Source: Minisyncoccota bacterium
Lineage (GTDB): Bacteria; Patescibacteriota; Minisyncoccia; Minisyncoccales; JAQTPW01
Assembly (NCBI GenBank): GCA_028712565.1
Contig: JAQTPW010000002.1
Coordinates: 99,601 to 163,600, forward strand
DNA length: 64,000 nucleotides
Direction: 5' to 3'
Shown here: piece after piece, positions 52,966 through 53,536 of the stretch
How positions within the stretch are numbered: position 1 is the stretch's first letter
Layout of the letters: the number at the start of each line of letters is the position of its first letter
The notes under the pieces: generated by a model
Told to the model about the DNA's origin: nothing
The model's input: the letters and a program-made list of their open reading frames with translations, nothing else
Database searches by the model: none
Position numbers and translations under genes: made by a program

Positions 52966-53406
52966 TTAAAACGGTATATCTTTTATGTCTATTTCTCCCC
53001 CTTCTTCAATTACTGGGATTTCTTCCTGGGGCGCTTCTTTGGGCGCTTCTTTTGGTTCGGAAGGAGAACTTTTTCCAGCTGATCTGGGGCCTAATTGCAT
53101 TCTTTCTCCTACAACTTCAGTTCTATATCGCGTGTTTCCAGTAGAGTCTTTCCAATTTCTTGTTTGTATTCTTCCTTCAATCAATACCAGAGACCCTTTT
53201 GCCAAATACTGCGAAGATATTTCAGCTAATCTTCCGAAAAGAACTATATTATGGAATTCAGTTTGCTGCTTTTTTTGTCCGGATTTGTCATTGAAAAAAC
53301 GGTCAGTTGCCAATCCAAAAGATGTCACTTGCTGTCCCGACGGAAGAGATCTTGATTCCGGGTCCCGAGTAAGCCGGCCGATTAAAAAAGCTTTATTTAG
53401 GTTCAC
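52966..53406 (-). CDS. ssb: Single-stranded DNA-binding protein
   Basis: GTG start. [18 protein letters not shown] fold, and an acidic tail ending DIPF. Confidence 0.93.
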
Positions 53407-53536
53407 CCCGTTAGAGGTCTGTCCTATATAGTTTATACGCTAATTTTGGAAGACCTTTATTTTTTTGATTAATCCCCCCGTTATCGCAAGCAAAAAATTT
53501 ATTTTAAATTTTTTGCCCAAGACCTCTAACGGGGTT
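53404..53536. repeat. 133-bp TIR-bounded palindromic element, copy 1 (rpsF-ssb spacer)
   Basis: Terminal inverted repeats ccccgttagaggtct (53406-53420) and agacctctaacgggg (53520-53534). About 98% identical to 58227-58359. Its terminal CAC is the GTG start of ssb. Confidence 0.9.

Follow-up and report, generated by a model that had tools for sequence, protein, structure and literature searches.

What is the short sequence that stands twice, almost unchanged, in the 64-kb stretch of a Minisyncoccota genome analysed here (the window), each time at the start of a minus-strand gene, and how are these two genes expressed behind it? The original prediction described a 133-bp element with terminal inverted repeats upstream of ssb and of the RNase J gene (rnj). 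It left two possibilities: a MITE (miniature inverted-repeat transposable element) carrying a portable translation start or 5′ untranslated region, or a cis-regulatory RNA shared by two nucleic-acid genes. Our comparisons show the two copies to be miniature, non-autonomous mobile elements of the MITE type, members of a very large Patescibacteria family with a target duplication of about 4 bp. Going further, we read the family as start-codon MITEs that are deletion derivatives of units encoding a GIY-YIG nuclease, that would be mobilised by this nuclease and that would let their host genes be expressed through translational coupling. We put the probability of this joint reading at about 0.8.

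The near-identical element with inverted ends upstream of ssb and rnj is real. A gapped alignment of the two copies, which lie 4.8 kb apart, gave 98.5% identity, the only differences being two 1-nt indels (A7 versus A6, and TCT-TCC versus TCTATCC), and the likeness ends at the element borders. Both copies and both host genes are on the minus strand, where the gene-sense sequence runs AACCCCGTTAGAGGTCTTGGG ... GGACAGACCTCTAACGGGGTGAA at 53402-53538 and again at 58225-58361. The terminal inverted repeats are perfect over 15 nt; CCCCGTTAGAGGTCT has exactly four exact matches in the window, namely the two arms of the two copies, and five matches when three mismatches are allowed, against 0.61 expected. 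The boundaries had to be redrawn. The inverted repeat common to the whole family is 12 nt long, Y-CCCGTTAGAGG ... CCTCTAACGGG-R (in copy 1, C-CCCGTTAGAGG ... CCTCTAACGGG-G), and gives 129 bp per copy; the repeat originally described stands, but its 133 bp take in 2 nt of the target duplication at either end besides this 129-bp element. The spacer from rpsF to ssb is taken up by copy 1, that from tRNA-Leu(CAG) to the RNase J gene by copy 2. The only open reading frames (ORFs) within the 129 bp are an 11-codon relic ORF and start-less open frames, none of them of transposase size. The features of the two loci are the following.

53406-53534, minus strand: element copy 1, 129 bp, in the rpsF-ssb spacer (alignment, family ends, empty site in L122)
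53520-53534, minus strand: gene-distal (sense 5′) terminal inverted repeat CCCCGTTAGAGGTCT of copy 1 (exact matches)
53406-53420, minus strand: gene-proximal (3′) terminal inverted repeat AGACCTCTAACGGGG of copy 1, whose last base is the G of the ssb GTG and which holds a UAA 4 nt before the start
53402-53405, minus strand: proximal target duplication TGAA of copy 1, giving the TG of GTG plus AA
53535-53538, minus strand: distal target duplication TGAA of copy 1, which, joined to the A at 53539, makes up ATGAA, the relic start of ssb, 1 nt past the rpsF stop
53504-53539, minus strand: relic-start ORF ATG AAC CCC GTT AGA GGT CTT GGG CAA AAA ATT TAA, 11 codons plus stop, spanning the whole distal repeat
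53477-53486, plus strand: internal partial arm copy CCCCCCGTTA, the half-site already noticed in the original prediction, which can pair with the distal arm in an alternative helix
53490-53516, no strand assigned: internal 11-bp A/T hairpin GCAAAAAATTT-ATTTT-AAATTTTTTGC (inverted-repeat search)
52966-53406, minus strand: ssb, host gene of copy 1 (100% match to the SSB of a 'Candidatus Pacebacteria' metagenome-assembled genome; Pfam PF00436)
53541-53960, minus strand: rpsF, upstream gene of the operon (promoter-like TTGACA-17-TATTAT at 54012-53984)
58229-58357, minus strand: element copy 2, 129 bp, in the tRNA-Leu-rnj spacer (L124 and L125 have empty sites)
58224-58228, minus strand: proximal target duplication TGAAA of copy 2, giving the TG of the rnj GTG
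58358-58362, minus strand: distal target duplication TAAAA of copy 2, mutated, the relic start having gone from ATG to ATA (a like pattern is seen in L129)
56481-58229, minus strand: RNase J gene (rnj), host gene of copy 2 (protein 100% identical to a database entry)
58365-58450, minus strand: tRNA-Leu(CAG), directly upstream of copy 2

For both ssb and rnj, GTG is the first possible start past an in-frame stop, as had been noted from the sequence, but the in-frame TAG lies 12 codons upstream of the ssb GTG and not 13; SSB homologues start, with MNLNK, at exactly the position of this GTG. The earlier claim that the element supplies the start codon holds for one base of it. The first base (G) of each host GTG is element DNA, but the TG belongs to the duplicated old start codon, and the old ATG is kept as a relic upstream. 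In copy 1 this distal relic ATG is in frame with the proximal UAA, the 127 nt between the cores corresponding to 42 codons.

The state of the two loci before insertion can be read from relatives that lack the element at the orthologous positions and whose proteins are 77-82% identical. In L122 (SSB 77% identical) the gap between rpsF and ssb is 1 nt (...GGC GAG TAA t ATG AAT CTA AAC); the empty site is GAGTAAtATGAAT, and the locus reads rpsF..GAGTAAtATGAATCTAAAC. The window has GAGTAAgATGAA[C..G]TGAACCTAAAT at this place, i.e. ...GGT GAG TAA g ATGAA[C-element-G]TGAA CCT AAA T. From this comparison it follows that the element sits in the old ssb start-codon region, flanked by duplicated TGAA. 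The rpsF-ssb spacer of a second relative is 9 nt long, and L121 (80% identical) has an orthologous copy, now decayed, at the same junction. There (L121:2810-3010) the distal arm has degenerated and ATTAAT stands in place of the relic ATGAAC; the C-terminus of rpsF has changed, the gene now ending at a TAA inside the relic. The ssb-rpsR spacer measures 109 nt in the window and 4 nt in L122.

At the second locus, L124 and L125 have no element, and rnj starts with ATGAAA directly behind tRNA-Leu. The window reads tRNA...CT ATAAAA[C..G]TGAAAAAAATA here; the duplication, TGAAA, has 5 bp, and a G-to-A change in its upstream copy has killed the relic start of copy 2. The distance from the tRNA 3′ end to the start is only 1-3 nt (L124:950-970, L125:2560-2585, window 58358-58365), so that maturation of the tRNA 3′ end would yield an rnj mRNA with practically no leader; the gene call for rnj in L125 begins within the tRNA. 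In the pre-insertion state, ssb was coupled to rpsF (TAA-N-ATG) and rnj lay directly behind the tRNA. Judged by these comparisons, copy 1 hit the ssb start when this was 1 nt past the rpsF stop, and copy 2 hit the rnj start when this was 1-3 nt past tRNA-Leu. The 98.5% identity between the copies indicates recent movement.

We then scanned one genome per species for CCCGTTAGAGG-N90-120-CCTCTAACGGG, the members being ascertained by exact 11+11-nt matches. At least 120 loci with the same 12-nt ends (YCCCGTTAGAGG) were found in species-representative genomes; among the matches listed, nearly all are from Parcubacteria/Paceibacteria-type or other Patescibacteria, and several genomes have multiple loci. 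Confinement to these two loci in all relatives, together with structure-preserving covariation, would according to the original prediction have spoken for a conserved leader; this wider scan and the empty sites in relatives gave the opposite picture. A few of the contigs with elements carry the labels Gammaproteobacteria, Elusimicrobiaceae, Planctomycetota or Omnitrophica (L009, L010, L023, L057). The context in L009 is typical of a Patescibacteria element and suggests mis-binning, while the L010 element, which is G+C-rich inside and lacks a duplication, may have matched by chance or be unrelated to the family. The family had no match in 2.9 million viral contigs, and a metagenome scan with the window-specific end gave four loci, all of them short elements.

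Element statistics were obtained from the fetched loci plus the window, about 0.94 Mb in all, with 144 elements used for ends and flanks and 103 for the orientation and ORF tests. Next outside CCCG...CGGG, 108 elements have T..A and 33 have C..G, with a mismatch in 3; this terminal pair is thus complementary in 141/144, and the repeat is therefore 12 nt long. The outer 4-nt flanks are identical in 86 of the 144, compared with 19 on average and at most 29 for shuffled pairs, and further duplications match over 3 nt (8 elements) or 5 nt (6 elements). Most duplicated 4-mers are TGAA; TGGA, TGAG, TTGA, CAAG, CTTA, CATA and CCCA also occur, both copies always matching. Inner positions of the repeat vary jointly on the two arms (AGAAG/CTTCT, AGAAA/TTTCT, AGATA/TATCT), with CCCGTTAGA invariant. 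Furthermore, nested copies with their own duplications are present in L009, L071, L073, L100 and L128. The mobile-element side of the original prediction is thereby borne out, by empty sites at both loci, target duplications, hundreds of copies at unrelated Patescibacteria genes and nested insertions.

The insertion sites are far from random with respect to genes. About 105 elements (roughly 70%) directly abut the ATG or GTG of an ORF of at least 60 codons, and 69 of these about 105 have a relic ATG 5 nt upstream of their distal end. A|TGAA at the first ATG of a long ORF accounts for no more than 3.9% of the TGAA sites in the loci, so the association with start codons far exceeds a tetranucleotide preference. 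A few other elements lie 1-4 nt off the start, with target duplication TATG in L128 and CAGG, in codons 2-3, in L127, and one insertion is at a -35 box, TTGA[C..G]TTGACA. The L127 case (2071-2330) is an element of the window subfamily standing past codon 2 of a nucleotidyltransferase-like gene; the start is not rebuilt there, and an in-frame ATG within the element would give a 10-residue N-terminal extension. These data show the family as one that inserts at or beside start codons, with A|TGAA as target. The old ATG stays upstream as a relic, and the terminal purine of the element together with the duplicated TG makes a new in-frame ATG or GTG.

The host genes include those for ribosomal proteins and aminoacyl-tRNA synthetases, murG, infC, nusB, ssb and rnj. 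Since such essential genes are hit, the insertion must allow their expression. The initiation context of the hosts is relevant here: upstream of the relic ATGs, Shine-Dalgarno-like 4-mers were found in 2/81 cases and a TANNNT box, 3-10 nt before the ATG, in 38/81; a Shine-Dalgarno-like motif precedes 4 of the 46 long ORFs of the window. This scarcity points to leaderless, A/U-rich or stop-start coupled initiation in these organisms. A TANNNT box 4-10 nt before the start was observed for 17/46 window long ORFs, for example recA (TATAAT-AAAAAA-ATG, about 51585-51601).

How could the rebuilt start be used? The elements have a fixed orientation: the motif ...CT[AG]CCTCTAACGGG is at the gene-proximal end in 85 of the 103 elements and at the distal end in 5. 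In the proximal repeat, a UAA stands 4 nt before the rebuilt start (UAA-CGGG-AUG). The frame that ends at this UAA is open for at least 25 codons in 57/103 elements on the sense strand, compared with 21 on the antisense strand and 15 and 21 in the other sense frames; shuffled interiors gave a mean of 23.5 and a maximum of 34. The difference is sharper for ORFs with an ATG and at least 15 codons that end at the repeat UAA, found in 58/103 elements in sense and 3/103 in antisense. Of these 58 sense ORFs, 19 begin at the relic ATG and span the whole element, and the remaining ones begin at an ATG 21-58 nt inside the element, behind A/T-rich sequence as native starts are. We rejected the short ORF as a leftover of the GIY-YIG frame, as it is in a different frame and the old GIY-YIG frame is not enriched. 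An ORF this specific in strand and frame suggests selected translation into the element, with a stop-start coupling that melts the terminal stem. Ribosomes coming from the old start, or from an internal AUG in the A/U-rich loop, would enter the element and melt the stem, stop at the UAA or UGA of the proximal repeat (4 nt before the new start or overlapping it) and reinitiate.

The stem to be melted is considerable. The full-length RNA is predicted to fold with -50 kcal/mol (z = -6.6), the start region being locked in a 16-bp stem. Opening positions -13 to +12 would cost 24 kcal/mol in copy 1 and 14 kcal/mol in copy 2, and a predicted 11-12 kcal/mol when the distal arm is held single-stranded, for instance by a ribosome on the 11-codon relic ORF. 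Across the family, a terminal stem of at least 10 bp is part of the predicted minimum-energy fold in 101/103 elements. A consensus promoter scan found no outward promoter within the element, and TANNNT boxes near the proximal repeat showed no positional enrichment in the 103 elements; a TATAAA/TATATA box, 6-8 nt ahead of the repeat, is confined to the small subfamily of the window. Promoter scans thus lend no support to a portable 5′ untranslated region or promoter, as had been proposed. In the window subfamily the short ORF is broken or absent, and the stem might be melted by the 11-codon relic ORF (copy 1), or avoided by alternative folding or RNA processing. For ssb and rnj themselves, the candidate routes past the element are ribosomes that reinitiate after rpsF and melt the stem (copy 1), a two-hairpin fold via the internal half-sites, or cleavage of the stem.

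The last of these routes is also the best of the rival explanations, although it concerns the mechanism only and leaves the mobile origin unchanged: the 12-30-bp stem would be an RNase III-like processing site, the cut would leave the downstream mRNA with a very short leader, and expression would hinge on this cut and not on coupling. Correia-element stems are RNase III substrates, the stem of at least 10 bp is predicted in almost every element, and the hosts often use leaderless or short A/U-rich leaders. The window copies fit as well, having no intact coupling ORF and, in copy 2, a dead relic start. However, a cut in the RNA explains neither the strand- and frame-specific ORF present in 56% of the elements nor the AUGA overlap of the full-length units described below, and we regard it as unlikely as the general mechanism, if still a serious competitor.

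Reading the short elements as derivatives of a larger unit rests on relatives of about 280 bp that have the same ends and carry one 86-aa GIY-YIG (UPF0213-like) ORF (L043, L109, L131, L141, L037). L043 and L109 have arms of the same type, CCCGTTAGAGA ... TCTCTAACGGG, and the approximately 275 nt between them are this single ORF. Its product has a GIY-YIG catalytic domain (Pfam PF01541, E = 1.9e-18), and the nearest solved structures are uncharacterised UPF0213 proteins (PDB 1ZG2, 1YWL). At least 4528 homologous proteins were retrieved. The best 120 cluster representatives, at 72-94% identity, are mostly 86 aa long and in many cases located on contigs under 2 kb; at 50% clustering, the tight GIY-YIG family comes down to a handful of clusters. 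The repeats are part of the gene: the C-terminus is FL[SFAT]LTG in 81 of the best 120 representatives, and the proximal repeat TCT CTA ACG GGR encodes S-L-T-G, while an N-terminal M-(N/S/I)-P-V-R-E, annotated in 14 of the best 120, is the relic ATG plus the distal repeat in frame.

The full-length units have diverse insertion sites. L141 reads GATATAAT-N6-ATGAA[T CACGTTAGAGA ... TCTCTAACGTG A]TGAACC, with a TGAA duplication at the start codon, a compensatory change in both arms and a nuclease stop that overlaps the start of the host TspO gene (AUGA). L131, TAAAAT-N6-ATGA[T..A]TGAAGC, has a TGA duplication at the start codon and the same AUGA overlap, and L037, from a 50%-identical subfamily with a different 21-nt repeat, has a TATG duplication at the start codon. 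The units in L148, L155, L043 and L109 are at a stop/start junction or between genes. The inverted repeat of one GIY-YIG unit (L148:1175-1500, L150:250-580) reaches 5 nt further out (TTTAC...GTAAA); this unit lies in a TAAATG stop/start junction, and the upstream ORF6N-domain gene ends inside the element.

The likeness between short and full-length forms goes beyond the ends. The 12 nt inside the proximal repeat have the consensus nAnCGCGnCCTG in the short elements and are AAGCGCTTCCTT at the 3′ end of the gene, the mean identity of short elements to the gene end being 6.2/12 in sense and 3.5/12 in antisense. Interior patches such as GGTCGAATTTATTAC resemble GGTCG...ATTTATTACGAAG of the GIY-YIG gene. 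Because the ends are the same and both subterminal and interior sequence resemble the gene, the short elements are best read as what they look like, deletion derivatives of GIY-YIG units. The polarity of the elements would then go back to a unit in which the ORF has to point the same way as the host gene. The GIY-YIG ORF can be read from the host's old start through the 5′ repeat, and its UGA overlaps the rebuilt AUG (AUGA). The 86-aa GIY-YIG protein is our candidate for the mobilising nuclease of the family.

Several observations count against start-codon MITEs that derive from GIY-YIG units, are moved by the nuclease and are bridged by coupling. As to coupling, the ORF is missing in 44% of the elements, both window copies included: their UAA frame is open for 30 codons but lacks a start, codon 12 of the relic ORF is a stop, and the relic of copy 2 is ATA. 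The ORF counts given above (57 and 58 of 103) are not independent events, the elements being phylogenetically related. Sense and antisense minimum free energies do not differ over the 103-element family (p = 0.41), and because the two strands fold equally well the stem could matter only as DNA. As to origin and mobilisation, tblastn found no GIY-YIG remnant in the 64-kb window, four of the seven full-length units examined have no clear duplication (L043, L109, L155, L148), and the element is linked neither to a classical transposase nor to any joining activity known from experiment; by itself, a GIY-YIG domain makes a nuclease and not a known transposase.

These last points leave room for an ordinary MITE that is moved in trans by a conventional DDE transposase, the GIY-YIG ORF being a passenger or a selfish gene lodged in the loop. 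Inverted repeats with a mostly 4-bp (3-5 bp) duplication are the classical signature of a staggered cut, the symmetric arm changes are those expected of protein-bound ends, the folding has no strand asymmetry, and several GIY-YIG units are without duplications; DDE families with 4-5-bp duplications and ends starting with CC (IS1380, IS5, IS701) would presumably fit. No such partner came to light, however. About 1 Mb of element-bearing loci yielded neither arm pairs 0.3-4 kb apart nor a unit of transposase size with these ends, and the metagenome scan for the window's own end gave no DDE partner either. The only coding unit with these ends is the GIY-YIG ORF, with its repeat-encoded C-terminus in 81 of the best 120 representatives, and it is the 3′ end of this gene that the subterminal sequence of the short elements matches. 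The 85:5 polarity would also go unexplained by a symmetric complex, unless selection accounts for it. We consider a DDE transposase acting in trans improbable.

Two further explanations concern the window copies themselves. Their close spacing, near-identity and the imperfect flanking duplication of copy 2 could suggest immobile relics, multiplied by local duplication or gene conversion and not by transposition, but the likeness ends exactly at the borders, each copy has a separate target duplication in the start codon of its own host gene, and relatives have clean empty sites, which makes this account very hard to sustain. The conserved leader RNA (attenuator- or riboswitch-like) common to ssb and rnj, the other half of the original prediction, draws on the very stable fold, the sequestered start codon and the alternative pairings permitted by the internal half-site, but it deserves the least credence of all and we set it aside, given relatives without the element at orthologous loci, the same ends with target duplications upstream of more than 100 unrelated genes (for ribosomal proteins, tRNA synthetases, cell-wall and membrane proteins among others), antisense folds as good as the sense ones, and Rfam searches of the window, the element (even at E ≤10) and 15 related loci that returned only tRNAs.

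With coupling-expressed start-codon MITEs derived from and mobilised by GIY-YIG units as our preferred reading, a bolder proposal can be formulated, for which we would wager slightly less than even odds. On this proposal, the YCCCGTTAGAGG elements would form a new transposon class in prokaryotes, with the 86-aa GIY-YIG nuclease as sole protein; such a transposon would target start codons, borrow the initiation signals of the host gene for making the nuclease and return the ribosome to the host gene via UAA-N4-AUG or AUGA.

Then, we compared the family to known systems. The element is of a known kind, a MITE; it is unusual in its start-codon targeting, rebuilt start, built-in stop, fixed orientation and GIY-YIG relative. 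The Correia (CREE/NEMIS, Neisseria), ERIC/IRU (enterobacteria) and RUP (pneumococcus) MITEs are alike in their 100-160 bp, inverted ends, short duplication, many copies and lack of a transposase gene, and they are also co-transcribed with their neighbours as a long hairpin able to alter expression. The repeat of the window family is nevertheless unrelated to that of Correia-type MITEs, and the duplication is a TGAA of about 4 bp here and TA there. About 70% of its members are in start codons, with the start rebuilt, the orientation fixed and a stop 4 nt before the start, and its only coding relative is a GIY-YIG nuclease and not a DDE transposase. Correia/CREE as such was rejected, as its own specific inverted repeat has about 26 nt and its duplication is TA, whereas the ends here are YCCCGTTAGAGG with a 4-bp TGAA-like duplication. 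We likewise rejected palindromes derived from IS200/IS605 and REPINs, which have hairpins near the ends of one strand but neither terminal inverted repeats nor a target duplication and which insert 3′ of a fixed tetranucleotide (the inverted repeats here are true ones, and the flanking 4-mers vary between copies on both sides together: TGGA, TGAG, TTGA, CAAG, CCCA), integron attC sites (consensus RYYYAAC ... GTTRRRY, against GTTAGAG ... CTCTAAC on both strands here) and, on the anatomy of true inverted repeats and co-varying duplications, an archaeal-type intron or tRNA-like processing.

Free-standing GIY-YIG homing genes (T4 seg, I-TevI) and UPF0213/YhbQ share the GIY-YIG domain with the full-length relatives and are selfish and multi-copy. 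In contrast to them, the relatives have 86 aa with the catalytic domain only and no DNA-binding domain, are bounded by inverted repeats (one encoding the C-terminus) and target duplications, and use many target genes instead of one cognate allele; the window copies are without the gene altogether. Mycobacterial interspersed repetitive units (MIRU), which are intergenic repeats of operons, have small ORFs that overlap the flanking stop and start codons and keep translational coupling, as proposed here, but they are tandem direct repeats with no inverted ends or target duplications, and start codons are not rebuilt. The Rickettsia palindromic elements (RPE) and the mitochondrial byp elements are, like the window family, palindromic selfish insertions tolerated in essential genes, as the machinery of expression can cope with them; RPE are translated in the host frame and byp are skipped by ribosome hopping, whereas the window element stays outside the protein and makes a new start.

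In the literature, GIY-YIG ORFs are reported in non-intron insertions of rRNA genes of the Candidate Phyla Radiation (CPR) (PMC11270868). Set beside the window family by their description only, these insertions come from the same phylum and have small GIY-YIG ORFs that are not in group I/II introns, but they are in rRNA genes, and no inverted repeats, target duplications or start-codon insertion are reported for them. A GIY-YIG protein is also listed among the horizontally transferred genes of Patescibacteria (PMC12455944). Literature searches by the repeat sequence and for MITEs in CPR/Patescibacteria, GIY-YIG with inverted repeats or duplications, and UPF0213/YhbQ found no account of such elements, and the family is apparently undescribed.

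The window holds other repeats. Short tandem arrays of 7-nt units (TAGTAAC, ATTTTTG, ATTTGTA, AATTTCT, AATTTAG and others) occupy many intergenic spacers and may be a second kind of inserted or expanding sequence; they are located at 52857-52965, 12161-12204, 17553-17582, 18812-18843, 19033-19064, 21570-21622, 36057-36088 and 62785-62819. An exact 55-nt direct repeat (48990-49044 and 49238-49292) comprises the 3′ end and stop of the long ORF 45432-49043 and recurs 248 nt downstream. A 37-nt G+C-rich repeat, TTTTCCCGCCCGAGGCGGGTCCGCCTTGGGCGGAGAT, stands in A/T-rich surroundings at 18681-18717 and 19410-19446, the copies being 97% identical and 729 nt apart. On the minus strand, positions 1-51 of the window match a truncated tRNA (Rfam RF00005, 29.6 bits) whose 3′ end is cut at the window edge.

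The family has consequences for the handling of these genomes, in which gene callers will misplace starts (M-N-P-V-R-E extensions, GTG starts, tRNA-overlapping ORFs) and assemblies will break at the repeats. If coupling is true, the elements are a natural module for stop-start reinitiation that is portable and needs no Shine-Dalgarno sequence, and reinitiation and leaderless initiation become directly testable in uncultivated bacteria. If the GIY-YIG protein mobilises the family, another nuclease family would join the short list of DNA transposition enzymes. Genomes of CPR/Patescibacteria are tiny and have almost no intergenic space, and a selfish element that dwells in start codons would explain how mobile DNA persists in them. 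Should the elements prove to be a new class of transposon, this transposon and its derivatives would colonise essential genes of ultra-compact, Shine-Dalgarno-poor genomes almost free of cost.

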